From a virus (taxonomy: Duplodnaviria; Caudoviricetes): a stretch of DNA of 55,341 nucleotides. Numbering within the stretch: the first letter of the stretch is position 1; every line of letters starts with the position of its first letter. A program made the position numbers and the translations under genes. Under the pieces are notes generated by a model that ran no database searches, was not told the origin of the DNA, and saw nothing but the letters and a program-made list of their open reading frames with translations. This document shows, in pieces, positions 24,070-36,701 of this stretch. The stretch spans positions 1-55,341 of the IMG/VR virus record IMGVR_UViG_3300032213_001903; one strand, written 5' to 3'.

Positions 24070-25824
24070 TCAAAAATTCAAGAAATCTTTAGCATAGTTA
24101 TATTCACTCCATGTCTCTAGAAATTTTTCTTTATCTGGACAATCTTTCATAGTGTCTTCGACTATACCCCAATTTCTTGCTACTAGACTATGCATATCAG
24201 CCGAGCCAACTAAAATTTTTCCACTCGCACTATCCATAGCGTTTATTCTGTATTTTGAAAAATTTGATATTCTTGTTTCTAAAATAATTTTAAAATCATT
24301 AGTTTCAACTAATCTGTCTATTAATGCTTTTAAATATTTCCAGTTAACATCTATCCAACCCCAAGCCGGCCATTTAGTTCTACTTAACAATGCTCGATAT
24401 AATTGGTCAAACACCATCATTGTCACGATATCTCGTTCACTGGCAGTGCTAGTAGAAAGAACCATTTCAGTCATTATCTCTGGGTCACTCGCATTATAAA
24501 CATCTAGTACTGAGTTTTGTTTTGGCTTCATATCAATGATATCAAATACCACTCCGCTTTCTACTTTGTATTTTTCTTTATAATCTGCATCATATGCTAC
24601 AGGAGCATTGACTAAAATATGAAATGAGTAACTTCTAGGTACAAATCCATTACTATAAATTTCATTTAATGTTTCTAAATATGATTTTAGTGATTGTCCT
24701 GGTAACCCAACTATAATTTCTACATAAATCTTTTTTAATCCATGTGATTCATTATATTTTCTATACATTGAATGCGCAAAGTTTTTCTGATCTTCCCAGC
24801 TTCCTGGTCTGTGTATCGCATCAAGTACATCTTTATTAACATCCTGTGCGCTTAATTTTATCCACCAGCGGGATAATTTATACTTAATGATTAGTTCTAA
24901 TATTTCTTTAGTAGTGTTACTAAAATTTTTGTTTAAGTTATAAAGATAGTATTTAAATTCATGTCCATTTTGATTATGTTCGATTACTCTTTTAGTTATA
25001 GCTAGATCATCTTCCCACATACCAAAATTAGCATCTGCTAGATATAAATTATACATCTGATGTTTGGCCATAAAATCAATATCGTCTAAAAAATTTATTT
25101 TCCTCTTCTGTGTTTTATTACTTTGCCCACCATTCCAATCACAGAATGTACAGTGAAACGGACAACCTCTACTAGTCTCATATATCCAGGCTAGACTAAC
25201 ATTTGGTTTGGTTTTATAAAATTCTATTAATTCTACCACTAAATCTTCACATTCACGATATGGGCTAAAATGAATACCACGAACAAATTCATAGTTGTAT
25301 GATGTTTGAGTAGATTTAATATCATCCTTATTTTTTATGAAATGAACTATGTTTGAATCTTCCGAAGAAATTTGACGGGCGCCAATAAAGTCTAGTGCTA
25401 AACTAGCCCAAGCTTTCTCCCCCTGTCCAATGACATAGTGATCTATAAAAGGATATTTAGTATACCAGTCTTGATTGACAGCATCACAACTTGGTCCTCC
25501 AGCTACTATTTTGATTGAATCCTGAAAGTAGTCTTTAACTGCCTTAATTTGATCAAAAATACTTCTAACATTCCATAAATACAAGCTTACACAGAGTATA
25601 TTTGCATTTTGTTCTTTGATATAACTTATTAATTCTTGGTTTGTAGCAGTATGTATAATACTAGGTGCCCACTGAACCATATCTTTGTACAATGGATAAT
25701 TTACTTTGAAATAACTATGCAAATAATATGGAGTTGGATTTACGAATATATTCTCATTATTTAATGCTGAATAGTTAGCACTGTTACCTGGCGGAGAATA
25801 AAATACAACTTTTATAGTTTTCAT
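24070..25824 (-). CDS. B12-binding radical SAM protein
   Basis: SLYLWN..IVAGGP..GQGE cobalamin-binding domain; ETSRGCPFHCTFCDW; DANFG; GLPGQ. Confidence 0.9.
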   Translation of the reverse strand: MKTIKVVFYSPPGNSANYSALNNENIFVNPTPYYLHSYFKVNYPLYKDMVQWAPSIIHTATNQELISYIKEQNANILCVSLYLWNVRSIFDQIKAVKDYFQDSIKIVAGGPSCDAVNQDWYTKYPFIDHYVIGQGEKAWASLALDFIGARQISSEDSNIVHFIKNKDDIKSTQTSYNYEFVRGIHFSPYRECEDLVVELIEFYKTKPNVSLAWIYETSRGCPFHCTFCDWNGGQSNKTQKRKINFLDDIDFMAKHQMYNLYLADANFGMWEDDLAITKRVIEHNQNGHEFKYYLYNLNKNFSNTTKEILELIIKYKLSRWWIKLSAQDVNKDVLDAIHRPGSWEDQKNFAHSMYRKYNESHGLKKIYVEIIVGLPGQSLKSYLETLNEIYSNGFVPRSYSFHILVNAPVAYDADYKEKYKVESGVVFDIIDMKPKQNSVLDVYNASDPEIMTEMVLSTSTASERDIVTMMVFDQLYRALLSRTKWPAWGWIDVNWKYLKALIDRLVETNDFKIILETRISNFSKYRINAMDSASGKILVGSADMHSLVARNWGIVEDTMKDCPDKEKFLETWSEYNYAKDFLNF

Positions 25825-25993: not shown

Positions 25994-26022
25994 TTGACAA
26001 GATATGATAAATAAACTACAAT
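25994..26022 (+). promoter_or_regulatory. Sigma70-type promoter of the RNA island
   Basis: TTGACA-17 nt-TACAAT. Confidence 0.75.
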
Positions 26023-26065
26023 GCAATCTAGGCACTGAAAAAACAGAATAGAAAACTTATTGAAA

Positions 26066-26239
26066 ATGAAAACAAAGGTAAATCATCAATTTAGCACACT
26101 GCCCAAGCAGACAAGATCACCTATGTCTAGCCAGTGGCAAGCTTTATCGACATTTACGATTTGTGCCAGTGGCAATAGCATTAAAAATGATCGCCCAGAG
26201 TATAAGTCAGGGTTCCTAGAAGGAGCAGATTACAAATAA
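26066..26239 (+). CDS. Putative attenuator leader peptide (57 aa, all 20 amino acids)
   Basis: MKTKVNHQFSTLPKQTRSPMSSQWQALSTFTICASGNSIKNDRPEYKSGFLEGADYK*; contains the antiterminator strand; weak RBS. Confidence 0.65.
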   Translation: MKTKVNHQFSTLPKQTRSPMSSQWQALSTFTICASGNSIKNDRPEYKSGFLEGADYK

Positions 26240-26262
26240 ATTTATTAGTAATCTAAACATCT

Positions 26263-26298
26263 AAGAACCCTGAGAAACTAAAAAGTCTCAGGGTTTTT
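26263..26298 (+). terminator. Attenuator terminator
   Basis: AAGAACCCTGAGA/TCTCAGGGTTTTT hairpin; 5' arm can alternatively pair with 26207-26220. Confidence 0.8.
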
Positions 26299-26315
26299 CG
26301 TTAAGTGGATAGAAA

Positions 26316-26504
26316 ATGAAAAGGGTTGACAAAAAATATAAAGATGATGTAAGATTCGAAACTTGTGACAAACCAGATTGGTTGAAGAATCATACATTGT
26401 CAGAGGATCAAGTAAAGCATCTGATGTATAACAAATATCAGAGGGCTTTGAAGGATCAGAAAATTCTAGAAAAGATCAAATATCTTGATAGGTTTACTGA
26501 TTAA
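26316..26504 (+). CDS. Hypothetical small protein
   Basis: 62-aa ORF after the attenuator. Confidence 0.45.
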   Translation: MKRVDKKYKDDVRFETCDKPDWLKNHTLSEDQVKHLMYNKYQRALKDQKILEKIKYLDRFTD

Positions 26505-26724
26505 CAGTGTTAAAATGAGGGAACGTGGCCCTCGCAACACACTATAATAAGTTGTAAACGGGCGGACTGCTAGATGAAATGATGGCGATAACATCAGAGT
26601 ACAAACAGCAGGCTAGGGTATAGCTCTAGCATAGCGTAGAAATACGCTATTCACTAGTGTATTGAAGAAAATACGCCCTTAGCCCCTGACGCTAAGACAA
26701 GCATTCAGTACATTAATGAATAGC
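26505..26724 (+). ncRNA. Structured leader/ncRNA region
   Basis: Hairpins GAGGG/CCCTC, TGATG/CATCA, GCTAGG/TCTAGC, ATAGCGTA-GAAA-TACGCTAT, long GCTATTCA..TGAATAGC stalk. Confidence 0.45.
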
Positions 26725-26731
26725 AATTTAT

Positions 26732-26809
26732 TGGGGTATAGCTTAGTTTGGCCTAAAGCAACGGTCTTTGAAATCGTGATCACTGGTTCGAATCCAGTTA
26801 CCTCTGCCA
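26732..26809 (+). tRNA. tRNA-Gln(TTG)
   Basis: Cloverleaf, loop CTTTGAA, TTCGAAT T-loop, CCA. Confidence 0.9.
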
Positions 26810-26814
26810 GTTTT

Positions 26815-26867
26815 AGGATCGGTTCAGCAATTAAAAAAACTTTATATGAAAAAATTAAAAGCGTCCT
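26815..26867 (+). ncRNA. CAGCAA-clamp RNA #1 (short, degenerate; overlaps 5' end of the tRNA-Arg-like gene)
   Basis: AGGATCG-GTT-CAGCAA ... CG-TCCT. Confidence 0.5.
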
Positions 26868-26940
26868 TATACCCTCTGGCTACGAACCAGTTGAAAGGTT
26901 AGTTGGATACATGGAGGTTCGAATCCTCCAGGGCGCGCCA
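26861..26940 (+). tRNA. Atypical 'rewired' tRNA-Arg(ACG)
   Basis: Acceptor GCGTCCT/AGGGCGC+GCCA, normal T-arm, CTGG-CTACGAA-CCAG arm, D-loop-like AGTTGGATA located after the anticodon arm. Confidence 0.7.
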
Positions 26941-26984
26941 AACATAAATATTCAACAACATATATGATGTTACTAAATAAAAAT

Positions 26985-27071
26985 GGAAGATAGATGGCTT
27001 GGAGCCTAACTGGACTTGAAATCCGGTCCACTCAGTGATGGGTGACAGTTCGATTCTGTTATCTTCCTCCA
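26985..27071 (+). tRNA. tRNA-Ser(TGA), tRNA-Sec/allo-tRNA-like
   Basis: GGAAGAT(A)/(T)ATCTTCC acceptor, CTGGA-CTTGAAA-TCCGG, long variable arm, short D-loop. Confidence 0.75.
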
Positions 27072-27078
27072 AACTAAT

Positions 27079-27152
27079 ATCTCGATAGTGTAATGGCAGC
27101 ATACCGGTCTCCAAAACCGTTAGTCTAGGTTCGAGTCCTAGTCGGGATGCCA
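27079..27152 (+). tRNA. tRNA-Trp(CCA)
   Basis: Cloverleaf, loop CTCCAAA, CCA end. Confidence 0.92.
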
Positions 27153-27163
27153 AATATTCATGT

Positions 27164-27238
27164 GCTGATATAACACAGGGGAAGTGTACTTTCTTGGTAA
27201 GAAAGAGGTCACTGGTTCGAATCCAGTTATCAGCACCA
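27164..27238 (+). tRNA. tRNA-Thr(GGT)
   Basis: Cloverleaf, loop TTGGTAA. Confidence 0.92.
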
Positions 27239-27245
27239 AAATTAT

Positions 27246-27321
27246 GTGGGTGTGACCCGAAAGGCTAGGGAACGGATTGCAAATCCGTTTTATGCAGGTT
27301 CGACTCCTGTCATCCACTCCA
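27246..27321 (+). tRNA. tRNA-Cys(GCA)
   Basis: Cloverleaf, loop TTGCAAA, U73. Confidence 0.92.
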
Positions 27322-27328
27322 ATATATT

Positions 27329-27352
27329 GGAAGTATAGCAAAGTGGTAGTGC
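27329..27352 (+). pseudogene. 5' fragment of a tRNA (acceptor strand + D-arm)
   Basis: GGAAGTA-TA-GCA-AAGTGGTAG-TGC, then breaks off before the endonuclease gene. Confidence 0.55.
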
Positions 27353-27384
27353 TTTTATTAAAAAGGCATAAATAATAGAAGAAG

Positions 27385-28062
27385 ATGCACTACCAAATGT
27401 TAACTTGTAAATTTTGTGGTAAAGAATGTAAGAATGAAAACTCATTGAGGAATCATCAAAGATTATGCAAGAGTAATCCTGAACGACAACAGAGTCCTTT
27501 TGAGAAGAAAGAAATTCAAGAAAATAGAAAAAGATCAAATCAATTTTTAAAAGCAAAATCTTTGGGTATTGACTATGTAATTTCAGACGAAACTAGGAAT
27601 AAATTTAAAGAATTAGCTGTTAGAACTTGGACCGATGAAAAGCGTAGGGAACATTCTGAGTGGATGAAAATACAAGCACAACGAAATTTGAATAATCACC
27701 CAGATTCATATCTATCCAAGAATATATTCGGTCGTTCTAAAAAAACACTGTACAAAAATGAATGGATGCATAGTTCATGGGAACTAGAATTTGCGATGTG
27801 GTTGGATTCGATTCAAGTTGAATGGACTAAAAAAGTTCCGTATTTTACTTATGATTGGGATGGCTCGGTTCGTAGATACTTTCCTGATTTCTATTTGAAA
27901 GAATTTGATTTATATGTAGAAATTAAAGGATATCAAACAGATCGTGATCTTGTTAAATGGAAATGTATTCCTAATTTAGCGATAGTTAAAGAAAAAGAAA
28001 TTAAGGCAATTAAAGAAAAAAAGTTTGAATTGTCGCAATTGTTAAATGGTAAGGTACCTTAA
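27385..28062 (+). CDS. Putative homing endonuclease: zinc finger + PD-(D/E)xK (TnsA-like) nuclease
   Basis: CKFC...H..LC; SSWE..FA..LD; YFPDFYL...YVEIKG; 3' end overlaps the next tRNA. Confidence 0.8.
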   Translation: MHYQMLTCKFCGKECKNENSLRNHQRLCKSNPERQQSPFEKKEIQENRKRSNQFLKAKSLGIDYVISDETRNKFKELAVRTWTDEKRREHSEWMKIQAQRNLNNHPDSYLSKNIFGRSKKTLYKNEWMHSSWELEFAMWLDSIQVEWTKKVPYFTYDWDGSVRRYFPDFYLKEFDLYVEIKGYQTDRDLVKWKCIPNLAIVKEKEIKAIKEKKFELSQLLNGKVP

Positions 28063-28123
28063 GAGGAAGAGGACATCCTTCATACGGATGAATGTGTGAT
28101 TTCGAGCATCACCCTTACCACCA
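28048..28123 (+). tRNA. tRNA-Met/Ile2(CAT)
   Basis: GGTAAGG/CCTTACC acceptor, loop TTCATAC. Confidence 0.8.
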
Positions 28124-28136
28124 TAGAGTATTTTGT

Positions 28137-28212
28137 GGTGCTATTAGTGTAGTGGTCTGCACATCATGTTGTGACCGTGAAAGTATGAGTTCAATCCTCA
28201 TATAGCACCCCA
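28137..28212 (+). tRNA. tRNA-His(GTG)
   Basis: G-1:C73, loop TTGTGAC. Confidence 0.9.
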
Positions 28213-28223
28213 AAGCATTTTAT

Positions 28224-28297
28224 GCCCCTTTAGTTAAAAAGTATAACACTGTGCTGATAACGCAGAGTCGGAGGAGCGTTACCTCCCGGGGGTACCA
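28224..28297 (+). tRNA. tRNA-Ile(GAT)
   Basis: Loop CTGATAA; atypical T-loop AGCGTTA. Confidence 0.85.
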
Positions 28298-28303
28298 AGT
28301 TTT

Positions 28304-28367
28304 AGGATGCGTTCAGCAACTTTAATACATTAGACTTTTAATCTAAACCGTAAAAAAGCATCCTGTT
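28304..28367 (+). ncRNA. CAGCAA-clamp RNA #2 carrying a Lys(UUU) anticodon stem-loop
   Basis: AGGATGC/GCATCCT-GTT clamp, GTTCAGCAA, internal TTAGA-CTTTTAA-TCTAA. Confidence 0.8.
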
Positions 28368-28380
28368 ATTTTTGACCTTT

Positions 28381-28498
28381 AGGTTCTTTTCAGCAATTTA
28401 AATAATCTTTCTGGAAAAAAGAGGGTCTGGGTTCGAATCCCAGCACTAGGTTGGTCTCTAGTGTGGTGTAATGGTAGCACGAAAAAAGAGAACCTGTT
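28381..28498 (+). ncRNA. CAGCAA-clamp RNA #3 carrying a circularly permuted tRNA (YrlA-like)
   Basis: AGGTTCT/AGAACCT-GTT clamp; anticodon arm TCTTT-CTGGAAA-AAAGA, T-arm CTGGG-TTCGAAT-CCCAG, loop-closed acceptor CACTAGG/TCTAGTG, D-arm GTGT-AATGGTA-GCAC. Confidence 0.85.
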
Positions 28499-28500
28499 AT

Positions 28501-28575
28501 ATTCCGTGAGGCAGCTGGAGTGGCCGATAGTCCTTCAAACTATTGAGATGGGATCAAAACCCATACGGAATACCA
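28501..28575 (+). tRNA. Atypical tRNA (loop CCTTCAA: Glu TTC, or shifted TCA)
   Basis: ATTCCGT/ACGGAAT acceptor, ATAGT/ACTAT stem, T-loop ATCAAAA, CCA. Confidence 0.65.
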
Positions 28576-28583
28576 AATTTTAT

Positions 28584-28661
28584 TGTGCATGAGCAAGCAA
28601 GGTGTATGCGTCTGGCTGTTAACCAGAAATGAGTGGGGTTCGATTCCTCAATGCACAGCCA
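28584..28661 (+). tRNA. tRNA-Asn(GTT)
   Basis: Loop CTGTTAA, G73 CCA. Confidence 0.88.
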
Positions 28662-28667
28662 ATTTAA

Positions 28668-28742
28668 GCCGAAGTGGTAGACTGGTAATGCAACGGATTG
28701 TCTATCCGTCCTATGCGGGTTCGATTCCCGTCTTCGGCGCCA
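28668..28742 (+). tRNA. tRNA-Asp(GTC)
   Basis: Loop TTGTCTA, G73 CCA. Confidence 0.88.
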
Positions 28743-28744
28743 AG

Positions 28745-28894
28745 TTTTGAGATAGACGATGAGATTGAGTCCCTTATATTCTAGTGCCCTATTTCTTGAG
28801 CATGACACACCAGTAGAATTGTATAAGGTAGTATAAACTCTCTCAATCGAGACAAGCCAATGAGTCCTTAAGAAAGATAGTTGGTCTCTCAAAA
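28745..28894 (+). ncRNA. Unknown structured RNA (~150 nt)
   Basis: TTTTGAGA/TCTCAAAA closing stem; nested CGAT.GAGA..GAGT/ACTC.TCTC.ATCG and CTTATA.TTCTA/TAGAA..TATAAG. Confidence 0.55.
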
Positions 28895-28903
28895 ACCTAT
28901 AAC

Positions 28904-28978
28904 GGGGGCAGTAGCGGGCTACGGCGATCCCTTGCAAGGATCGTGTCTAGAAGGGTTCAACTCCCTCGGCTTCCACCA
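28904..28978 (+). tRNA. Atypical tRNA-Ala(TGC) with minimal D-arm
   Basis: G3:U70, CGATCC-CTTGCAA-GGATCG, D region GTAG-CGGG-CTAC, ACCA. Confidence 0.7.
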
Positions 28979-28993
28979 AACAAAGGAGTAGTA

Positions 28994-29362
28994 ATGGTGA
29001 AACAATTTACTATCGATGAAAGTTTTATTTGTGAAGTTTCAATTATTGTAGAAACTGATTTTATTACTGACCGTAATAATCCTACACATGAAGACCTTAT
29101 AAAAATACTTAAAGGATATGACAAATCAATTAGTATATCTAGCAAAGACCATGATGAGTTTACAAAATTGCGTGACCAACTTGAAAGTGAAGGTTACATT
29201 GAATGTCAACGATCTTGGTATAATGGTGATAGAGTATTAAAAAGTTTTAAATTAAATGAATTCGTCCTGCGAAAAGGACACAAGTTTTTATGTGCTGTTG
29301 CAATGAAGAACAGTATTACATACGCAAGAAGTAAAGGTCGTAAAACGATTTCTTTCTTGTAA
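28994..29362 (+). CDS. Hypothetical protein
   Basis: AAGGAG RBS before ATG 28994. Confidence 0.7.
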   Translation: MVKQFTIDESFICEVSIIVETDFITDRNNPTHEDLIKILKGYDKSISISSKDHDEFTKLRDQLESEGYIECQRSWYNGDRVLKSFKLNEFVLRKGHKFLCAVAMKNSITYARSKGRKTISFL

Positions 29363-29369
29363 AAATTAA

Positions 29370-29445
29370 CTCTCTATAGCGTAACTTGGTAGCGTTCCTG
29401 GTTTGGGGCCAGGCGGTCGGGGTTCAAATCCTCGTGGGGAGACCA
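29370..29445 (+). tRNA. tRNA-Pro(TGG)
   Basis: Loop TTTGGGG, C1-G72, A73. Confidence 0.9.
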
Positions 29446-29449
29446 GTTT

Positions 29450-29566
29450 AGGGATACATACAGCAAATTCTATCCAAACGATAGGTAGTTGGTTCGATTC
29501 CAACATTACGCACATGCGTGATTAGCTCACTCGGTAGAGCATTCGTCTTAAAGACTGTATCCCGTT
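29450..29566 (+). ncRNA. CAGCAA-clamp RNA #4 carrying a circularly permuted tRNA (YrlA-like)
   Basis: GGGATACA/TGTATCCC-GTT clamp; CTATC-CAAAC-GATAG, T-arm GTTGG-TTCGATT-CCAAC, closed acceptor ATTACGC-ACAT-GCGTGAT, D-arm GCTC-ACTCGGTA-GAGC. Confidence 0.85.
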
Positions 29567-29572
29567 TTACAT

Positions 29573-29648
29573 AGTCGATTAGTTCAGTGGTATGAACGCT
29601 ACATTGACACTGTAGAGGTCAGTGGTTCGACTCCACTATCGACTACCA
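29573..29648 (+). tRNA. tRNA-Val(GAC)
   Basis: Loop TTGACAC. Confidence 0.93.
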
Positions 29649-29671
29649 ATTATCTTTTAAAGGAAATAAAA

Positions 29672-29845
29672 ATGAAAACAATTTATTTTGAAAACATTAG
29701 AAATAATGAAAAATTTTATTGTACCGATATTAAAGATATAAGGACAATTGATGGAATTGAATATCTTAGAGTATTCAAAATGGGAACTCAGCGTGATTGT
29801 CTTGTAAAGAAAGACACACTTAGAAAGATTCCTGAAAAGAAATAA
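29672..29845 (+). CDS. Hypothetical small protein (57 aa)
   Basis: AAGGA RBS; MKTIYFENIRNNEKFYC... Confidence 0.65.
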   Translation: MKTIYFENIRNNEKFYCTDIKDIRTIDGIEYLRVFKMGTQRDCLVKKDTLRKIPEKK

Positions 29846-29846
29846 T

Positions 29847-29924
29847 GCCCCCTTGGACAAATTGGCAAAGTCGCTTCTCTCAAAAGGAAGAGTTTTCTCG
29901 GTTCGACTCCGAGAGGGGGTACCA
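29847..29924 (+). tRNA. tRNA-Leu(CAA), short variable loop
   Basis: Leu-type D-arm, loop CTCAAAA. Confidence 0.88.
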
Positions 29925-29932
29925 CAATAAAT

Positions 29933-30009
29933 GCCCAAGTGGTGGAATTGGTATACACGCAATGTTGAGGTCGTTGTCACTGCAGGTTCGAGTCCTGTCT
30001 TGGGTACCA
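29933..30009 (+). tRNA. tRNA-Leu(GAG), short variable loop
   Basis: GTGGAATTGGTATACAC D-arm, loop TTGAGGT. Confidence 0.88.
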
Positions 30010-30049
30010 AATTTGACATAAATTAATTTTTATGTTATAGTAGTACTAT

Positions 30050-30126
30050 GGGTCGTTAGCTCAGTGGATAAGAGTGCTTGGCTTCGAACCAAGTGGTCAG
30101 GGGTTCGAATCCTCTACGACCCTCCA
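30050..30126 (+). tRNA. tRNA-Arg(TCG)
   Basis: Loop CTTCGAA. Confidence 0.92.
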
Positions 30127-30174
30127 AAACTAGTTAAATAGTTATAGTGGCAATAGCAGATAAAGGAGTAGAAA

Positions 30175-30735
30175 ATGGCTGTTCTAGCACTAGATATTTC
30201 GGGAGTTCCCCGGCAATGGATTTCGCATGATGATGCAATTACTTACCATGCAAAAAATGCAGTAGCATGGGCATTGGGTGAAGTAGTGGCTAAATATCGC
30301 GGCGGTGTTCAAAATGACGGAGAAATGAGTTATCTAGAAACTTCTAGCATAATTGCTATTAAAGGTCATGGTTTTAACCCACACAAACATGCTACTGTTG
30401 CATTGAGTAATAGAACATTGTTTGGTCGTGATCGTTATATTTGTGCATATTGCGGTGGGCATTTTCCTAATTATCACAATCTAAGCCGTGATCATATTAT
30501 GCCTAAAAGTCGCGGTGGTGAAAACATTTGGACAAATGTGGTAACCGCATGTAAGGATTGTAATGCTAAAAAAGGTCACAAACTTTTAAAAGAATGTAGC
30601 ATGGAATTGCTTTATGTTCCTTATGTGCCAAATCACTATGAAAATATGATTCTACAAAATCGTACAATCCTTGCAGATCAAATGGAATATTTGCTTGCTG
30701 GAGTACCAAAGCATAGTAGAATTTTATTGTCGTAA
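30175..30735 (+). CDS. HNH endonuclease (McrA-like)
   Basis: RDRYICAYCG, DHIMPKSRGG..W.NVVTACKDCN..KG. Confidence 0.9.
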   Translation: MAVLALDISGVPRQWISHDDAITYHAKNAVAWALGEVVAKYRGGVQNDGEMSYLETSSIIAIKGHGFNPHKHATVALSNRTLFGRDRYICAYCGGHFPNYHNLSRDHIMPKSRGGENIWTNVVTACKDCNAKKGHKLLKECSMELLYVPYVPNHYENMILQNRTILADQMEYLLAGVPKHSRILLS

Positions 30736-30796
30736 CGGGATATCATGCAGTTGACAAAAAATCTGCTGCATGATATACTAGCTAAATATTTTAAAC

Positions 30797-30872
30797 GCTC
30801 CTGAAGCATTGCTGGCGATGCGCCGGATTTGTAACCCGGAGATAATCTGTTCGATTCAGATCGGGAGCACCA
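30797..30872 (+). tRNA. tRNA-Thr(TGT)
   Basis: Loop TTTGTAA. Confidence 0.88.
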
Positions 30873-30881
30873 ACAACATAT

Positions 30882-30957
<76 letters not shown>

Positions 30958-30976
30958 AACATAGTATGGAGATTGT

Positions 30977-31171
30977 ATGTTAGTAAGTGAAAACGCAGGA
31001 TATAAACTATATTGTGAGGTTCGTAAACTAGATGTGCCCCCACAAAACAATTATGTTCGCATTTATACAACATATGATTGGGCTAAAAATCCAACTTACG
31101 AACAAAACAAACTAGAGTTGTTCCTCAGTGATGAAGAACTATCAACACTCAGGCAATCGTTAACGCTATAA
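30977..31171 (+). CDS. Hypothetical small protein
   Basis: GGAG RBS. Confidence 0.65.
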   Translation: MLVSENAGYKLYCEVRKLDVPPQNNYVRIYTTYDWAKNPTYEQNKLELFLSDEELSTLRQSLTL

Positions 31172-31179
31172 AAAATTCT

Positions 31180-31254
31180 CTGGCGTTAGTATAACGGATA
31201 ATACAGCGGCCTTCTAAGCCGTCAATAGAGGTTCGATTCCTCTACGCCGGACCA
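31180..31254 (+). tRNA. tRNA-Arg(TCT)
   Basis: Loop CTTCTAA. Confidence 0.92.
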
Positions 31255-31302
31255 AAAACAAAAGTAGTATAAAATTGTTGTAAAAATACAACATAAAAAG
31301 TT

Positions 31303-31385
31303 TTGACAATAAATCAAAACGGTAGTATACTACATGTATTGAAAGTGATAAAGCAATCTTGCTTATCATTAAGGTTCTTTAAAAA
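31303..31385 (+). promoter_or_regulatory. Sigma70 promoter + hairpin + boxA-like leader
   Basis: TTGACA-17-TATACT; TGATAA.GCAA/TTGC.TTATCA hairpin; GTTCTTTAAAAA. Confidence 0.7.
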
Positions 31386-31391
31386 ATTGTC

Positions 31392-31517
31392 AGACTGTTT
31401 CTAAGTGTGCTGTAGTATAGTGGGAAGTACGCAAGGGCCCTCACGATTCATATCGTACGGTGGGAATCGCCAGTGAAACGATGGTTCGACTCCATCTAGT
31501 ACACTTAAAAACAGTTT
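31392..31517 (+). ncRNA. tRNA-like RNA with extended stalk and no CCA
   Basis: D-arm GTAT-AGTGGGAA-GTAC, T-arm GATGG-TTCGACT-CCATC, AGACTGTTT.TAAGTGTGCTG/TAGTACACTTA.AAACAGTTT stalk. Confidence 0.65.
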
Positions 31518-31582
31518 GACAATAAATGCACTTGGTGCTATACTATGTGCATACGCTGAGAAATCAGCAAGTTCTTTAAAAA
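31516..31582 (+). promoter_or_regulatory. Sigma70 promoter + boxB/boxA-like leader
   Basis: TTGACA-17-TATACT; GCTGA-GAAA-TCAGC; GTTCTTTAAAAA. Confidence 0.75.
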
Positions 31583-31617
31583 ATTAATTTTGTATAGTCC
31601 CTGTTTAAGTTACAGGG

Positions 31618-31733
31618 TACTATATGTAAACACATTGTTATGCAGCACAGCCGAATCTGTGTGTAACTCCTAGGCGTAACCTATTATGAGAAATAGGGGA
31701 GTGCTATTCTCATCAGTGTGTTTTCATATAGTA
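31618..31733 (+). ncRNA. Stalk-enclosed structured RNA with probable pseudoknot
   Basis: TACTATATG.AAACACATTG/CAGTGTGTTT.CATATAGTA; loop ATGAGA can pair with downstream TCTCAT. Confidence 0.6.
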
Positions 31734-31737
31734 ATTT

Positions 31738-31812
31738 GCTCGGTTCGTCTATTGGTTAGGACGCTGGCCTTTCACGCCGGAAAGAGGGGTTCAATTCCCC
31801 TACCGAGTACCA
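31738..31812 (+). tRNA. tRNA-Glu(TTC)
   Basis: Loop CTTTCAC. Confidence 0.93.
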
Positions 31813-31948
31813 AGTAATAGGGAGAGTCGCTGCGAAGCGTATTCTTAAACGACCCGTAGAACTCCCGGGCGTCCCCAAGTAAGTTTTTGGTGACATGACA
31901 GATTTCAAATCTTACTTACAAATGATAAATACATTTAGGAGTAAGATT

Positions 31949-32374
31949 GTGAAACAAAACCATACTAACAAATTTACGGATGCTGATTTAATAGCACAAT
32001 ACAAGTTAACACCCACTTTAAGTAAACTTTCTCATTTTTTTAATGTACCTGATGTAACAGTCTGGCGCAGAGCAAAAAAATTAGGATTAGAATTTAAGAT
32101 AGGTGGTGCTAATGCTAAAATGCCTTTATCAGAGATTTTAGAAGGAAAGCATCCACAATATCAAAGTAATAAATTAAAAAACAGACTTATTAATGAAGGT
32201 ATAAAAGAAAATAAATGCGAAGAATGTGGTATTACTGAATATCAAGGTAAGCCTTTAGTGATGCAGTTAGATCACATAGACGGTAATACACATAATCATT
32301 TATACAGTAATTTAAAACTACTATGTCCAAACTGTCATTCTCAGACAGTAACATGGTGTGGTAAAAACAAATAA
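31949..32374 (+). CDS. HNH homing endonuclease
   Basis: CEECG, LDHIDGN..N...NLKLLCPNCHSQT; AGGAG before GTG 31949. Confidence 0.88.
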   Translation: MKQNHTNKFTDADLIAQYKLTPTLSKLSHFFNVPDVTVWRRAKKLGLEFKIGGANAKMPLSEILEGKHPQYQSNKLKNRLINEGIKENKCEECGITEYQGKPLVMQLDHIDGNTHNHLYSNLKLLCPNCHSQTVTWCGKNK

Positions 32375-32376
32375 TT

Positions 32377-32464
32377 GGGTGTTGCCCCCGTCGGCGGTCT
32401 GTAAAACCGTTACCTAAAGAGATGGGAAGTCAGGTTCGTGGAGCGTTACCATCAACACCCACCA
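32377..32464 (+). tRNA. Atypical 'rewired' tRNA-Tyr(GTA)
   Basis: GGGTGTTG/CAACACCC+ACCA, GCGGT-CTGTAAA-ACCGT arm directly after CCCC, then GGGA and D-loop-like AGTCAGGTT before the T-arm. Confidence 0.7.
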
Positions 32465-32471
32465 AGTTTAT

Positions 32472-32548
32472 GCACCGTTAGATCAGTTGGTTAGATCGCA
32501 TGCCTGTCACGCATGAGGCCAGGGGTTCAAGTCCCCTACGGTGCGCCA
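32472..32548 (+). tRNA. tRNA-Asp(GTC)
   Basis: Canonical, loop CTGTCAC. Confidence 0.95.
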
Positions 32549-32722
32549 AAATTCAAACATAAACAATATCTGGTATTTTGCTAGTATCTAGAAAATTAAG
32601 ATATTGTTTTATACTTTTGAAGTCGCTAGTAATCATTATTATTTTGTTCTGTTTATTAACAACAGTGTACATTTTGATATGATTATGCCAGGTAACTTCA
32701 ATAGTCATAGACATATTTATAT

Positions 32723-32792
32723 GCGCTGGAATGGTTTACTAGCTGGATTTGAAGCCAGAAGTAGACGGGTTCGATTCCCGTTAGGTGCGCCA
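32723..32792 (+). pseudogene. tRNA remnant lacking the 5' acceptor strand
   Basis: CTGG-ATTTGAAG-CCAG, ACGGG-TTCGATT-CCCGT, TAGGTGC-GCCA without a complementary 5' strand. Confidence 0.6.
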
Positions 32793-32801
32793 AATTTTTT
32801 T

Positions 32802-32877
32802 GCTGCTTTAGCTGATGTGGTCATAGCAACGGTCTGAAGAACCGATGAACGTGGTTCGATCCCACGAGGCAGCACCA
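32802..32877 (+). tRNA. tRNA-Phe(GAA)
   Basis: Loop CTGAAGA. Confidence 0.9.
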
Positions 32878-32880
32878 AGT

Positions 32881-33091
32881 TTTGTAAGTGTCAGCAAGAG
32901 AAAGTCACGCTATCTAGGTAAGTTCGAACTACCAAAATAGTAGAAGGTGACGGGTTCGACTCCCGGCCGATCGGAAGATCGGTGCAGATTGGTTGCTAAC
33001 TGGACCGGTATCCCAAGTGGCGTATCTTGACCCAGCCGGCTTAATTACATGGGAAAATGGTAGCGATATGAGGGACGCTACTACTTACAAA
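32881..33091 (+). ncRNA. CAGCAA-clamp RNA #5 (~210 nt) with permuted tRNA-like module
   Basis: TTTGTAAGT/ACTTACAAA clamp, GTCAGCAA; CGGG-TTCGACT-CCCG, GCCGATC-GGAA-GATCGGT, GCA-GATTGGT-TGC. Confidence 0.7.
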
Positions 33092-33119
33092 TTCATTTTT
33101 TAAGTTAAAATATAATATT

Positions 33120-33211
33120 GGAGATGTGGCCGAGTGGCCGAAGGCAGCAGGTTGCTAACCTGTCGTGTTTAGTAATAAGCACCGTGAGTTCGAATCTCAC
33201 CGTCTCCACCA
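33120..33211 (+). tRNA. tRNA-Ser(GCT)
   Basis: Loop TTGCTAA, long variable arm. Confidence 0.93.
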
Positions 33212-33220
33212 ATAACAATA

Positions 33221-33397
33221 AGTCCCGGCTATGCTTGTTGTCACGGTCCCTAGTGATTAGCAGCACACTTTGGTCGAGGCGGGTGTAAGTCCCGTCAACA
33301 AAAAATATGCGAGTGATAGCGGACTACGCATACGGACATCTAGGCTTGAGGACTGTCGTCCGATATCAAAAGACAATATGTTGCTAGTTTAGGGACT
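33221..33397 (+). ncRNA. Unknown structured RNA (~175 nt)
   Basis: AGTCCC/GGGACT closure; TGCT..TCAC/GTGA..AGCA, GCGGG-TGTAAGT-CCCGT, TATGCG/CGCATA, CGGAC/GTCCG helices. Confidence 0.6.
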
Positions 33398-33400
33398 AGC

Positions 33401-33554
33401 GCCATATTTTAACACATTTCTGTCTTATACGGGGTTTCAGGTTCCACGATAGGTATGCCAGAACGAGAATAGACTTGCAATGAAATACTCGGGGTAACAT
33501 ACTAATACTTACAGACGACATTGACAATCGTTTGGGAGTGTGTTAAAATATGGT
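33401..33554 (+). ncRNA. Stalk-enclosed structured RNA
   Basis: GCCATATTTTAACACATTT/GAGTGTGTTAAAATATGGT ~19-bp stalk. Confidence 0.6.
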
Positions 33555-33559
33555 AAATT

Positions 33560-33710
33560 ATTTGTTGAGGACCTGTGAGCAAAGTGCCTAACCAGCAGCC
33601 TGACTCTTAAGGTATATACCAACCCTGCCCTACTATTCACTATGGTGGTGAAAGCAATTCAGGGGGCCATTTTATTAGGTCTTAAACAGACAAGAGTGTC
33701 CTCAATAAAT
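33560..33710 (+). ncRNA. Stalk-enclosed structured RNA
   Basis: ATTTGTTGAGGAC/GTCCTCAATAAAT stalk; CTGT/ACAG, CCTAA/TTAGG, CCTGA/TCAGG inner helices. Confidence 0.55.
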
Positions 33711-33723
33711 AAATTTTTATAAA

Positions 33724-34191
33724 ATGAAAAAAATAATCATAACATTTATTATCAGCATAACTTCTATTGCCCATGCTTGTTCAGGATACATCATAGGTTT
33801 TAGAGGTAAGGATAATCAATTTGATCAACAGGCATTTAATTTATATGCTGATAGAGTTGGGTATTGTAGTAATGCTTACAACTGGCAGCAAGATAAAGAT
33901 GCAATTAAGTTAATCAAAACTCTATCAGTTCCATATCAATTATATGGATACAGTCAAGGTGCAGTTACTGTTGCTAATTTGTTAAAAATTAAAGATTTAA
34001 CTAAGCCTGAGTTTGTGATAACAATAGGTGCGTATAGAACAACTGATGTTAATTTTGATAGATATAAAATTAAATATATCAATTATTTTGACAATAGTGG
34101 TAAGGGGCAACGAAGCCCAGGAATATTTCTGAATGTACCTCATAATGAGATACAACGAGAAGTAAATAATTTTTTTAATAAAGGAGATTGA
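33724..34191 (+). CDS. Secreted alpha/beta-hydrolase-like protein
   Basis: Signal peptide-like N-terminus; GYSQG nucleophile elbow. Confidence 0.65.
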   Translation: MKKIIITFIISITSIAHACSGYIIGFRGKDNQFDQQAFNLYADRVGYCSNAYNWQQDKDAIKLIKTLSVPYQLYGYSQGAVTVANLLKIKDLTKPEFVITIGAYRTTDVNFDRYKIKYINYFDNSGKGQRSPGIFLNVPHNEIQREVNNFFNKGD

Positions 34192-34272
34192 CATGAAACC
34201 TGGTAAACGGTAAGTGTCATCTTAGATTCTGTATGGTCTAGGGTGGCACTATAAACAATATAGTACAATTCA

Positions 34273-34348
34273 CCCTGATTGGCGTTAACGGTAGCGTACC
34301 GGACTCTTAATCCGAGAGGTGTAGGTTCGAATCCTACATCAGGGACCA
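34273..34348 (+). tRNA. tRNA-Lys(CTT)
   Basis: Loop CTCTTAA. Confidence 0.9.
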
Positions 34349-34351
34349 TAT

Positions 34352-34428
34352 GGAAGTATAGCTCAACTGGCTAGAGCAACCGGCTTTTAACCGGTAGGTT
34401 CAGGGTTCAAGTCCCTGTGCTTCTACCA
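34352..34428 (+). tRNA. tRNA-Lys(TTT)
   Basis: Loop CTTTTAA. Confidence 0.94.
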
Positions 34429-34553
34429 TATAAAAACATTCTCGACGGAGCAAGTGCCGCGCATAAATTGCGGTAACTGCATCGGTGGCCCTGGCAGGCT
34501 GCGAAAATCTATTGTGCCAGCAGTAGAGAATTATCAAGAGTGTTTCTATATGG
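34426..34553 (+). ncRNA. Stalk-enclosed structured RNA
   Basis: CCATATA.AAACATTCT/AGAGTGTTT.TATATGG stalk; TGCCGCG/TGCGGTA and CTGGCA/TGCCAG helices. Confidence 0.6.
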
Positions 34554-34574
34554 TAAATAACAAATAAAAAGTAG

Positions 34575-34646
34575 TTGACAATAAATCAAGATACATATAC
34601 AATACATGTATTGTGACGCTGAGAAATCAGCGATGTTCTTTAAAAA
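34575..34646 (+). promoter_or_regulatory. Sigma70 promoter + boxB/boxA-like leader
   Basis: TTGACA-17-TACAAT; CGCTGA-GAAA-TCAGCG; TGTTCTTTAAAAA. Confidence 0.78.
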
Positions 34647-34665
34647 TAATGATTGTAAAAAATTT

Positions 34666-34752
34666 GCCCGGATGGTGAAATAGGTAGACACAAGAGACTT
34701 AAAATCTCTCGCTTTAATCGGTGTGCCGGTTCGATTCCGGCTCCGGGCACCA
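34666..34752 (+). tRNA. tRNA-Leu(TAA)
   Basis: Loop CTTAAAA, variable arm present. Confidence 0.94.
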
Positions 34753-34762
34753 AAAATAAATT

Positions 34763-34839
34763 GCCTCTATAGCACAATTGGTTAGTGCAAACGACTCATA
34801 ATCGTTAGGTTACTGGTTCGAGTCCAGTTGGAGGCACCA
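34763..34839 (+). tRNA. tRNA-Ile2/Met(CAT)
   Basis: Loop CTCATAA. Confidence 0.9.
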
Positions 34840-34916
34840 ATATATTGTAGAGTTTAGATGATCGTTTAAATAAAAATATTAAACAGGTTATCGGTAAATG
34901 CCCGATAAATAGTGTG

Positions 34917-35669
34917 ATGATAACCACACGCAATAAATTTTATTTTTTTCTGATCGCCTATTTGACTTTATTTACATATTCATTTGTTGTAGATTTTAGT
35001 TGGATATGGCTAATCATCGGAATTATTTTAGCAAGAATTTTTAGTATTATTGGAATTGATTTAGGGTTCCATAGATATTGGTCTCATAAAGCATTTAAAT
35101 CTACAAGATGGTTTGAATATCTAATGATGTTTTGTGGTATTGTTGTGTATAACGGTAGCAGCATTATGTATGCAGGTACCCATAGAATGCATCATGCATT
35201 TAGTGATACTGACAAAGACCCACATGGTAGTGTTTGGTGGAAAGTTTGTCTGTATATGTATGAAGTAAAAGATATACCTATGAAAGTTATTAGCGATTTA
35301 ATTCGCATTGATTACCATAGATGGTGCCACAAACATTATTTTAAAATACATACAGTAATTTTATTAATCTGTTTATTAGATCCTGTATTTTTTGGACATA
35401 CAATTGGTTCGATTGTGTTTGGTGGGTTTATATTTACAGGAGTAGTTAATGTTCTTGCACATAGAAATGTAGGTTATAGAAATTTTGAAACTAATGACTC
35501 TTCAACCAACATAAGATGGTTACAAATTTGGTCCTTGCACGAAGGATTACATAATAATCATCACTATAAAGCTAGTGCATATGATTTTGCAATGAAAACA
35601 GGTGAGTTAGATATTTCCGCAGTTATATTAAGATTTCTAGCACGATTTAATATTGTCAAATTAACATAA
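34917..35669 (+). CDS. Membrane fatty acid desaturase (second copy)
   Basis: HRYWSH, HRMHH, EGLHNNHH. Confidence 0.9.
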   Translation: MITTRNKFYFFLIAYLTLFTYSFVVDFSWIWLIIGIILARIFSIIGIDLGFHRYWSHKAFKSTRWFEYLMMFCGIVVYNGSSIMYAGTHRMHHAFSDTDKDPHGSVWWKVCLYMYEVKDIPMKVISDLIRIDYHRWCHKHYFKIHTVILLICLLDPVFFGHTIGSIVFGGFIFTGVVNVLAHRNVGYRNFETNDSSTNIRWLQIWSLHEGLHNNHHYKASAYDFAMKTGELDISAVILRFLARFNIVKLT

Positions 35670-35679
35670 TTAAACCAGA

Positions 35680-35844
35680 TTAAATGTTTTTTATAAATTG
35701 TTTTGCAGATTCAACATTTGTAAAAAATTTCATATTAAACTGTTGAGTATATATATCGAATATAAAAATATAACAAGCTTCCTGAACATTCATTGATAAA
35801 TGAATCAATAATCCAGTTTTTGTTATTGCATCATATGTATACAT
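35680..35844 (-). CDS. Hypothetical small protein
   Basis: MYTYDAITKTG... fills the gap between the desaturase and tRNA-Gly. Confidence 0.45.
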   Translation of the reverse strand: MYTYDAITKTGLLIHLSMNVQEACYIFIFDIYTQQFNMKFFTNVESAKQFIKNI

Positions 35845-35877
35845 AAATATATTTATACTGAATATTAAGTGTTTTAA

Positions 35878-35953
35878 GCATCCGTGGTGTAAGCGGAAAC
35901 ATAGCGTCCTTCCAAGTCGCAGTACCCGGTTCGATTTCCGGGCGGATGCTCCA
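35878..35953 (+). tRNA. tRNA-Gly(TCC)
   Basis: Loop CTTCCAA, U73. Confidence 0.88.
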
Positions 35954-35965
35954 ATGTAATATATT

Positions 35966-36042
35966 GCCCCGGTGATGGAATTGGTATACATGCCGGTCTT
36001 AGAAGCCGTATTTTGCGAGTTCGAGTCTCGCCTGGGGCACCA
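35966..36042 (+). tRNA. tRNA-Leu(TAG), short variable loop
   Basis: Loop CTTAGAA. Confidence 0.88.
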
Positions 36043-36100
36043 AGAAATTCTCCATAACACACGGAGTATAATAGGATAAATAGTGTGTTAATGAATATTT

Positions 36101-36175
36101 GGGCTGTTAGTGATAATGGGAGCACGAGGCCTTTGCACGGCTTAGGTGGGAGTTCGATTCTCCCACGGTCCACCA
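36101..36175 (+). tRNA. tRNA-Ala(TGC)
   Basis: G3:U70, loop TTTGCAC. Confidence 0.92.
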
Positions 36176-36182
36176 AGTATAT

Positions 36183-36258
36183 TGCGGCGTAGAGAAATGG
36201 CATCTCATCGGTCTCATAAGCCGAAGGTAGTTGGTTCGATTCCAACCGTTCGCAACCA
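36183..36258 (+). tRNA. tRNA-Met(CAT), initiator-like
   Basis: TGCGG../..CGCA-ACCA, GAG/CTC D-stem, loop CTCATAA. Confidence 0.85.
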
Positions 36259-36263
36259 GATAT

Positions 36264-36340
36264 CGGAGTGTAGCACAGCCTGGTAGTGCGCTGCGTTTGG
36301 GACGCAGAGGTCCAAGGTTCGAATCCTTGTACTCCGACCA
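36264..36340 (+). tRNA. tRNA-Pro(TGG)
   Basis: Canonical, loop TTTGGGA. Confidence 0.95.
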
Positions 36341-36359
36341 ATTTTAAAAGGATTAAATT

Positions 36360-36533
36360 ATGTCACCTTCAGTAGAACAAATGAAAAAAGGTACTTGTGG
36401 ATGCGGTCGCAGCCCTACAGGTAATTGCATCGGCTGGCATGCATTAAGTGAATCTGAGTTTCAAGCTAAACTAGAATCATATATTGCTGATGAAGAAGCC
36501 AAAGAATTCAATAGCAATCTACAAGGTGATTAA
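36360..36533 (+). CDS. Small CDGSH-like Fe-S/Zn-binding protein (57 aa)
   Basis: CGCGRSPTGNCIGWH = CxCxxS..CxGxH; AAGGA RBS; not in ORF track. Confidence 0.65.
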   Translation: MSPSVEQMKKGTCGCGRSPTGNCIGWHALSESEFQAKLESYIADEEAKEFNSNLQGD

Positions 36534-36543
36534 ATATAGTTAT

Positions 36544-36618
36544 GCCTGGATAGCTCAGGGGTAGAGCGTCTCCTTTACACGGAGAGGGTCCGCGGTTCGA
36601 AACCGTGTCCAGGTACCA
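36544..36618 (+). tRNA. tRNA-Val(TAC)
   Basis: Loop TTTACAC. Confidence 0.94.
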
Positions 36619-36625
36619 AGTTAAT

Positions 36626-36701
36626 GCGGGAATAGCTCAGTTGGTAGAGCGAGTGCTTGCCAAGCACTAGGTCGTCGGTTCGAACCCGATTTCCCGCTCC
36701 A
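36626..36701 (+). tRNA. tRNA-Gly(GCC)
   Basis: Canonical, loop TTGCCAA. Confidence 0.96.

Follow-up and report, generated by a model that had tools for sequence, protein, structure and literature searches.

Why large phages carry dozens of transfer RNA (tRNA) genes, and how these genes are regulated, is to our knowledge an open question. It is posed anew by a stretch of 55,341 nucleotides (nt) of viral DNA (IMG/VR virus record IMGVR_UViG_3300032213_001903, Duplodnaviria; Caudoviricetes), here called the window, in which a promoter, a short open reading frame (ORF) and an intrinsic terminator stand in front of a long tRNA array. CheckV estimates a completeness of 16%, which suggests that the record is a piece of a very large phage genome. 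The original prediction, made from the letters of the window alone, took the segment before the array to be a ribosome-dependent attenuator with a leader peptide containing all 20 amino acids. Comparison with relatives lends support to this reading, through the covariation of the two antiterminator arms, the fixed distance of 20-33 nt between stop codon and terminator, and the diversity of the encoded residues. We think it probable that the element acts as a ribosome-mediated transcription attenuator where the tRNA island of a jumbo phage begins, and we hold the specific signal to which it would respond with less confidence. Its parts, their conservation, covariation and spacing, the frame-specific diversity of the ORF and the position before tRNA arrays can all be read from the compared loci and are described below.

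A layout conserved in front of phage tRNA arrays

The original prediction depended on the layout being conserved in relatives, and had named its absence there as a result that should overturn the idea. The opposite was found: the succession of ORF, antiterminator, terminator and tRNA array is kept in at least 84 metagenomic phage loci (the window included), which hold 64 unique leaders. Three more leaders close to the clade of the window, all of them with all 20 kinds of amino acid, came from a metagenome scan and raise the number of unique leaders to 67; the family counts given below use the 64 and leave these three aside. The peptide of the window is 18-35% identical to 26 other leader peptides, that is, homologous and strongly diverged.

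The relatives were reached through two anchors. Searches of a cultured-phage collection by DNA similarity, with the region of the window and with those of two relatives, gave no match, and neither did single-protein searches of viral contigs with the leader peptide and with the protein of a divergent radical SAM gene lying upstream of it. Two loci (L003 and L004) found through homologues of this radical SAM gene show the layout beside tRNAs, and their terminator loop and 3' arm are identical to those of the window. An exact search with the 19-mer formed by this loop and arm recovered 61 IMG/VR contigs, some of them from records of 200-367 kb (the 19-mer group). The second anchor was an RNA-like segment downstream of the terminator, searched as the pattern GGGCGGAC...GGCGNYAAC, which gave at least 105 new loci, mostly G+C-rich chance matches; a tRNA array follows in 25 of those listed. 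Among these listed matches, 22 loci were used as a second group, and three (L216, L233, and L244) were left out because their contigs start too near the anchor to hold a leader. The terminators of the second group differ in sequence from those of the 19-mer group.

The position of the element relative to the tRNA genes is very consistent. In the 19-mer group tRNAs were found downstream in 47 of the 47 loci with at least 700 nt of downstream sequence, 568 genes altogether and all on the strand of the leader, against none in 367 kb of upstream sequence; the distance from the 19-mer to the first tRNA was 280-1208 nt (median 443). In the second group 227 tRNAs lie downstream, again without exception on the leader's strand, and 10 lie upstream, one to three per locus in 7 of the 22 loci and often tRNA-Met. 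These counts place the element at or near the entrance (5' edge) of the tRNA island. The genes upstream of the leader differ between loci; the tRNA array downstream is constant. Where upstream tRNAs occur in the second group, the first is often tRNA-Met (CAT), in five of seven such loci (L149, L191, L197, L208, and L236).

A search of 1.84 billion protein representatives with the leader peptide returned one true relative (P0121, 96% identity). Four long repeat proteins from the same search, each matching in several weak stretches, were taken as spurious. The 655-residue protein P0123 holds four tandem copies of a unit with GPPEYKEGFLLGTDADAK and a repeated PEYKEGFLLG stretch; GPPEYKEGFLLGTDADAK resembles the C-terminal DRPEYKSGFLEGADYK of the window's leader (51% identity over 32 residues). 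One locus, L249, is a 13-kb contig from a metagenome bin labelled Neisseriaceae that carries this leader and terminator along with 12 tRNAs. Probably a contig of phage origin was sorted into a bacterial bin, and it gives a weak hint of Neisseriaceae as host. The contigs of four DNA runs contain few variants of the window's region.

Two mutually exclusive folds

The strong terminator noted in the original prediction (at 26263-26298) is there, with a stem of GAACCCTGAGA (26265-26275) and TCTCAGGGTTT (26286-26296, here arm C) around a loop at 26276-26285. A simple terminator scan had missed it, its loop limit being 8 nt and the loop 10 nt. Among the 64 leaders, every one has a G+C-rich stem of 6-12 bp followed by a T run, the run being short (GGGGTTTCC) in about ten loci. 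Other clades have different stems with similar A-rich loops of 9-10 nt.

The last codons of the leader ORF (arm A) can pair with a segment (arm B) that takes in the 5' arm of the terminator. The predicted pairing of 26207-26220 with 26260-26273, complementary at 13 of 14 positions and incompatible with the terminator, is borne out: the A:B duplex of the window reaches -19.9 kcal/mol by RNAduplex, against a mean of -8.1 kcal/mol for shuffled sequences, and beats 200 of 200 shuffles (0/200 as good). The minimum free energy (MFE) fold of 26030-26305 contains the antiterminator (-71 vs. -47.3 kcal/mol for shuffles, z = -5.2). At 26273 a natural A>G variant still allows a pair (G-U) in each of the two helices. 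Between the two arms lies an inner hairpin, and analogous ones (GTTAC/GTAAC) are found in relatives.

Over the whole family the A:B duplex has a median of -19.9 kcal/mol, compared with -10.0 kcal/mol for shuffles; no shuffle out of 200 was as good in 36 of the 64 leaders, and at most two were in 49. Pairing is also specific to each leader. Cognate arms average -19.6 kcal/mol and arms combined with foreign partners -13.1 kcal/mol, and in 51 of 64 leaders the cognate pair is better than the pairs with at least 90% of the foreign B arms. The outer helix differs by clade (TAGGTAA/TTATCTA, GTTTCATA/TATGAAAC, CAAGTAG/CTACTAG). A MAFFT alignment (40/63 distinct switch regions) misaligned arm A and offset the terminators by one column, and was not used to count pairs; covariation was judged instead by these duplex tests made sequence by sequence. 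By this measure arms A and B co-vary, which argues for an antiterminator and a terminator that exclude each other. Folded only as far as the end of B, 62 of the 64 leaders have A:B in their MFE structure.

The place of the stop codon is equally constant: it precedes the terminator's 5' arm by 20-33 nt in every one of the 64 leaders, and arm A ends anywhere from an overlap with the stop codon to 22 nt before it. Given the usual ribosome footprint, a ribosome that has reached the stop codon would either lie over A or occupy the loop between A and B, leaving the terminator free to form.

A leader that samples all amino acids and many codons

The 57-codon ORF of the original prediction (26066-26239) is present, and the first 46 codons, which lie wholly 5' of the antiterminator arm, already hold all 20 amino acids as claimed. 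For the window alone this is only mildly unusual, as 20 kinds in 57 residues have a chance of 6-9% (1.5-2% at 44 residues), so the significance of the completeness comes from the family. The earlier count of 39 different sense codons in 57 is also correct; a count of at least 39 has a probability of 0.005 if codons are random and of 0.016 if the peptide is given, and one of 1e-4 by comparison with real stretches of 57 codons from the long ORFs of the window.

All 20 amino acids occur in 52 of the 64 leaders (mean length 49 residues), 19 in nine, and fewer in three (18, 17, and 14). Many of the complete leaders have no more than 41-46 residues, a length at which chance would give a full set in about 1.5-2% of cases. 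The full set is already present before arm A in 51 leaders. The related phages thus show the pattern that the original prediction proposed as a check, with diverged peptides and retained amino-acid diversity (52/64), and the same holds for codon diversity in 37 of 37 leaders, as detailed below.

Two controls tie this completeness to the leader ORF and its frame. The downstream small ORFs of the same phages, of similar size (52 unique sequences, mean 52.8 residues), never contain 20 kinds and average 16.7, against 19.7 for the leaders. Read in the frame of the ORF, 51 of 64 leaders give 20 kinds, against 0-3 of 64 for any one of the five remaining frames, where 16.3-17.6 kinds are found; the leader ORF is open in all 64, and the other frames average 1.3-4 stops.

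Residues that occur only once in a leader are replaced less often than the others (6.3 vs. 16.3%; odds ratio 0.34, Fisher p = 5e-9) in a set of 34 nearest-neighbour pairs, which are not independent as they share ancestry. Where such a single-occurrence position was substituted, the amino acid was found elsewhere in the partner in 23 of 27 cases. Residues that have moved to other places include Trp (L118, L105), His (L113) and, in the window, Cys, His, and Trp. This supports selection that would act on the presence of an amino acid and not on its position. Synonymous codons are similarly spread out. Local codon usage could be estimated for 37 leaders, and in each of them the number of distinct codons exceeds the expectation given the peptide (mean 36.4 vs. 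32.6), and same-length windows of the phages' own genes have 29.1. No leader contains a run of codons for any one amino acid, the regulatory codon cluster of classical attenuators.

The ratio of non-synonymous to synonymous polymorphism, pooled (pN/pS), was 0.46, and that of substitution rates (dN/dS) had a median of 0.39 and was below 1 in 99% of 269 pairs out of 270, which supports translation of the ORF together with a moderate constraint on the peptide sequence. AlphaFold gave no confident fold for the leader peptide (predicted local distance difference test, pLDDT, 57.8; predicted template modelling score, pTM, 0.12), and neither this peptide nor the product of the downstream small ORF matched a family in Pfam, PHROG or the protein Atlas.

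Promoter and start of translation

The promoter predicted at 25994-26022 (TTGACA-17-TACAAT) matches the consensus at 11 of 12 positions, and 61 of 64 unique leaders have a strong promoter (score at least 9.5) before them. Eleven of these 61, from several clades, have only 6-10 nt between the -10 element and the ATG, which implies leaderless mRNAs; the same was judged by eye for L197, for which the script had chosen a site further upstream. The window differs in this respect, with the -10 element 43 nt upstream of the ATG and thus a 5' untranslated region (UTR) of 43 nt, and the 19-mer group has a conserved UTR of 64-78 nt that contains no well-spaced Shine-Dalgarno sequence.

Some short motifs recur around these promoters. 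The motif (G)ATAAATAA(A) is found in the spacers of the leader promoters of the window (26007-26015), L144, L149, L156, L190, L191, L197, L226, and L236, and in the 19-mer group it appears as GGACTAAATAAAAGACT immediately 5' of the start codon. Also in the 19-mer group, a sequence TTAACC-17-TATGAT overlaps the ATG of the leader; it could be a second promoter, giving a leader that cannot be translated.

Downstream elements and the tRNA island

The features of the window are collected in Table 1. Past the terminator the first gene is a small ORF that was matched by tblastn in 33 of the 84 loci, always 89-138 nt past the start of the terminator, and is optional, being absent in some loci. A TTGACA-17-TA..AT site stands in many relatives at the same relative place as the promoter-like site P2 of the window. 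As P2 overlaps the first codons of the small ORF, this ORF may be translatable only from read-through transcripts. Several more promoters with 11 of 12 matches lie inside the tRNA island of the window.

Between the small ORF and the first tRNA comes the segment that served as second anchor. Exactly GGGCGGAC was found 78-361 nt past the 19-mer in 50 of 62 oriented sequences (the 61 contigs and the window). The segment carries compensatory changes (GCTAGGG.../...CTCTAGC vs. GTTAGGG.../...CCCTAAC), and in relatives a long-range helix ATTCTAAAACATAC...GTATGTTTTAGAAT; Rfam gave no match for it.

Table 1. Coordinates of the leader element and of the features that follow it in the window.
Feature	Position	Strand	Basis or remark
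Putative sigma-70-type promoter P1 (TTGACA-17-TACAAT), would drive the leader	25994..26022	+	11/12 matches
Leader ORF, 57 codons and TAA	26066..26239 (TAA 26237-26239)	+	all 20 amino acids, 39 distinct codons
Arm A, 5' strand of the antiterminator in the last ORF codons (SGFLEG)	26206..26223	+	duplex with 26255-26275; in MFE fold
Inner hairpin GATTAC/GTAATC in the A-B loop, stop codon 26237-26239 in the hairpin loop	26228..26253	+	sequence; MFE
Arm B, 10-nt extension and terminator 5' arm 26265-26275	26255..26275	+	alternative partner of A or C
Intrinsic terminator, 11-bp stem, A-rich 10-nt loop AACTAAAAAG, T run to 26298	26265..26298	+	-15.4 kcal/mol
Conserved small ORF, 62 residues, motif DW..NH.LS/T.EQ...L...K..RA, first gene past the terminator	26316..26504	+	tblastn
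Promoter-like site P2 (TTGACA-18-TAAGAT), overlaps the start of the small ORF	26326..26355	+	10/12 matches
Conserved structured-RNA-like segment, starts GGGCGGAC, ends at the first tRNA	26559..26731	+	comparison
tRNA array	26732..36701	+	32 tRNAs by ARAGORN, all on the + strand; Rfam likewise 32

Rfam tRNA matches at 28224-28294 (41.4 bits) and 36184-36254 (51.2 bits) were missed by ARAGORN, and ARAGORN found neither a tRNA-Ile nor a tRNA-Tyr in the window. An ORF of 225 codons with a weak zinc-finger match (27385-28062) lies between tRNA genes and might have entered the array as a mobile, endonuclease-like element. Two near-identical small hairpins (GCTGAGAAATCAGC, at 31555-31568 and 34617-34632) stand about 10 nt past two of the promoters with 11 of 12 matches within the island (31516-31544 and 34575-34603). 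Elsewhere in the window there are genes for ribonucleotide reductase and SHMT, and further metabolic genes. In the islands of three relatives ARAGORN identified tRNAs with the anticodon TTA, which would read the TAA stop (L088, 1311-1383; L121, 8492-8564; L102, 595-686), and the leaders of these three phages end in TAA. Such a suppressor tRNA could in principle shift the point at which the ribosome stops on the leader.

Proposed mechanism and alternatives

The arrangement suggests the following sequence of events. The host RNA polymerase would start at P1 and transcribe the short leader ORF, whose last codons form arm A. A ribosome that reaches the stop codon without delay would sit on A, or in the loop between A and B, while C is being made; with A blocked, B would pair with C and transcription would stop. 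If the ribosome lags, A would capture B as soon as B has been made, the terminator would not form, and the polymerase would continue through the small ORF and the conserved structured RNA to the tRNA genes. With all 20 amino acids and a broad choice of synonymous codons placed before arm A, the leader would delay the ribosome upon a shortage of almost any charged tRNA, be it from starvation, from a mismatch between codons and supply or from tRNA cleavage by a host defence, and the phage tRNAs made after read-through would relieve the delay, closing a negative feedback. More specifically, such a "pangram" leader might be a universal decoding gauge that tests every amino acid and many isoacceptor tRNAs, any shortage opening transcription into the tRNA island and the small protein. 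The cause could be host anticodon nucleases or the decay of host tRNAs, and the element would be a counter-measure to defences that target tRNA. This further step we put forward only tentatively, judging it somewhat more doubtful than an even chance.

Several observations weigh against the attenuator or against this signal. We infer, and do not observe, that the ORF is translated, which way the switch works, what its natural signal is and that a feedback follows. The initiation signal is weak, as the original prediction had seen, with no Shine-Dalgarno sequence before the ATG in the window. The A:B duplex is not better than shuffles in L144 (55 of 200 as good), L208 (48) and L156 (20). In full-length MFE folds the terminator is preferred in 54 of 64 leaders, so that read-through would depend on folding kinetics; most leaders form A:B when folded to the end of B and the terminator once its 3' arm is included, which would mean that the two states are close in energy and that the order of synthesis favours A:B. 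A conserved counterpart of segment 1 of the trp leader (the anti-antiterminator) was not identified: when the ORF is folded by itself, the median share of paired bases in A is 47%, with no conserved partner, and the default without translation would then be read-through. At least one amino acid is missing from 12 of the 64 leaders, and two are short (L208 with 32 residues and 17 kinds, L224 with 22 and 14). All 20 kinds are complete more than 12 nt before arm A in only 2 of 64 leaders, and a ribosome stalled at the last four codons or so (often Asp, Glu, or Arg) might cover part of A and give no read-through. The expectation that an amino acid absent from a leader is matched by an absent tRNA failed, as the leader of L144 has neither Glu nor Val and that of L190 has no Cys, yet these phages encode the corresponding tRNAs. 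The peptide motifs KH.G.W, P(S/T)SIRG and NDR.PE are fairly conserved, with a dN/dS of about 0.4, and the leader peptide may have a function of its own. Finally, with P2 and the promoters inside the island, synthesis of the tRNAs need not depend on read-through, and the specific output of read-through may be the small ORF only.

Part of this could be accommodated if the same hardware read another signal, i.e., the general coupling of translation and transcription (ribosome availability, host shut-off, or the stage of infection), with the broad content of the leader simply averaging ribosome speed. The evidence for the hardware is then identical; with A:B as default a global loss of translation would give read-through, the leaderless mRNAs (11 of 61 strong-promoter leaders, and L197 by eye) would depend on initiation by 70S ribosomes, and the lack of correspondence between missing amino acids and missing tRNAs fits a gauge that is not specific. 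We nevertheless regard it as unlikely, since a gauge of average speed does not need every amino acid, and neither the protection of single-occurrence residues nor the raised synonymous diversity in 37 of 37 leaders would be explained. Quite improbable, in our judgement, is an ordinary gene for a small protein with its own terminator, the peptide being the product, perhaps acting in trans, and the complementarity serving mRNA stability or arising as a by-product. The conserved motifs and their dN/dS are what such a gene would show, the terminated transcript would be a complete small mRNA, and leader peptides that act in trans are known (peTrpL). However, the peptide has no family and no predicted fold, it carries 20 kinds before arm A in 51 of 64 leaders when none of the 52 neighbouring small proteins has 20, and this explanation leaves aside the covariation of A and B, the fixed spacing of stop and terminator, and the constancy of the tRNA array behind upstream neighbours that vary.

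The ORF might also be incidental, the switch depending on a factor, such as a protein antiterminator, or on RNA only, such as a T-box-like RNA that binds tRNA. The A-rich terminator loop of 9-10 nt is unusually conserved and could be a binding site, and the leader RNA is strongly structured (z = -5.2); against this, no Rfam family, T-box included, matched the leader at the gathering thresholds or with E relaxed to 10, every one of the 64 leaders keeps its ORF open, with a diversity that is specific to its frame, and the stop codon is fixed relative to the terminator, all of which makes this explanation very unlikely. Most improbable of all is a precursor of a ribosomally synthesized and post-translationally modified peptide (RiPP), processed by the divergent B12-binding radical SAM enzyme (24070-25824, - strand) and a homologue of Asp/Asn hydroxylases. 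In the window the peptide gene does adjoin the radical SAM gene, and the Asp/Asn beta-hydroxylase homologue lies further upstream, but this neighbourhood is not a property of the family. A radical SAM gene is near the leader in just 4 of 61 loci with at least 3 kb of upstream sequence (one of them at 22% identity), a rarity that disfavours the RiPP precursor, the hydroxylase is near it in 6 of 61, and 78 of 80 radical-SAM loci have no tRNAs or leader. The ribosome-mediated attenuator remains the reading that we prefer.

Comparison with known attenuators

If the proposed attenuator is real, it would be the first regulatory logic proposed for phage tRNA islands, and would link these islands directly to translational stress, possibly to host defences that cleave tRNA. 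It would also extend attenuation by leader peptides from sensing one amino acid to sensing all, in a compact natural element of about 300 nt that might be used as a general reporter of decoding problems. Searches of an open full-text library brought up no description of such an element.

The classical leader-peptide attenuators are those of the trp, his, leu, thr, ilv, and pheA operons, with leader ORFs of 14-32 codons. The phage element has in common with them a leader ORF, an intrinsic terminator, an antiterminator that shares a strand with the terminator, and a stop codon placed in such a way that a terminating ribosome blocks the antiterminator, so that smooth translation would lead to termination. 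It differs in that the leaders have no run of codons for a single amino acid and instead contain all 20, each mostly once or a few times and with many synonymous codons, and in the length of the ORF, 39-67 codons in 62 of 64 leaders (L208 has 32 and L224 has 22). Moreover, no segment-1 anti-antiterminator was found in the phage leaders, so absence of translation should give read-through, some members would be leaderless mRNAs, and what follows is a tRNA array and not a set of biosynthetic genes.

As in pheST with its leader pheM and in T-boxes, the expression of the decoding apparatus would be tied to the supply of charged tRNA. However, each of those systems responds to a single amino acid or tRNA and governs synthetase genes, whereas the phage element precedes tRNA genes and would sample all amino acids, and the T-box covariance model had no match in the leader (Rfam, E up to 10). 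Like the coupling attenuators of pyrBI and pyrE, it would read how closely the ribosome follows the polymerase. In pyrBI and pyrE, however, the leader ORF extends across the terminator, and termination is prevented by a ribosome close behind the polymerase; the phage stop codon always lies 20-33 nt before the terminator, which implies the opposite polarity. What is known, then, is the hardware of the leader-peptide attenuator; what is new is a leader that has no codon run, samples all amino acids and precedes the tRNA genes of a phage.

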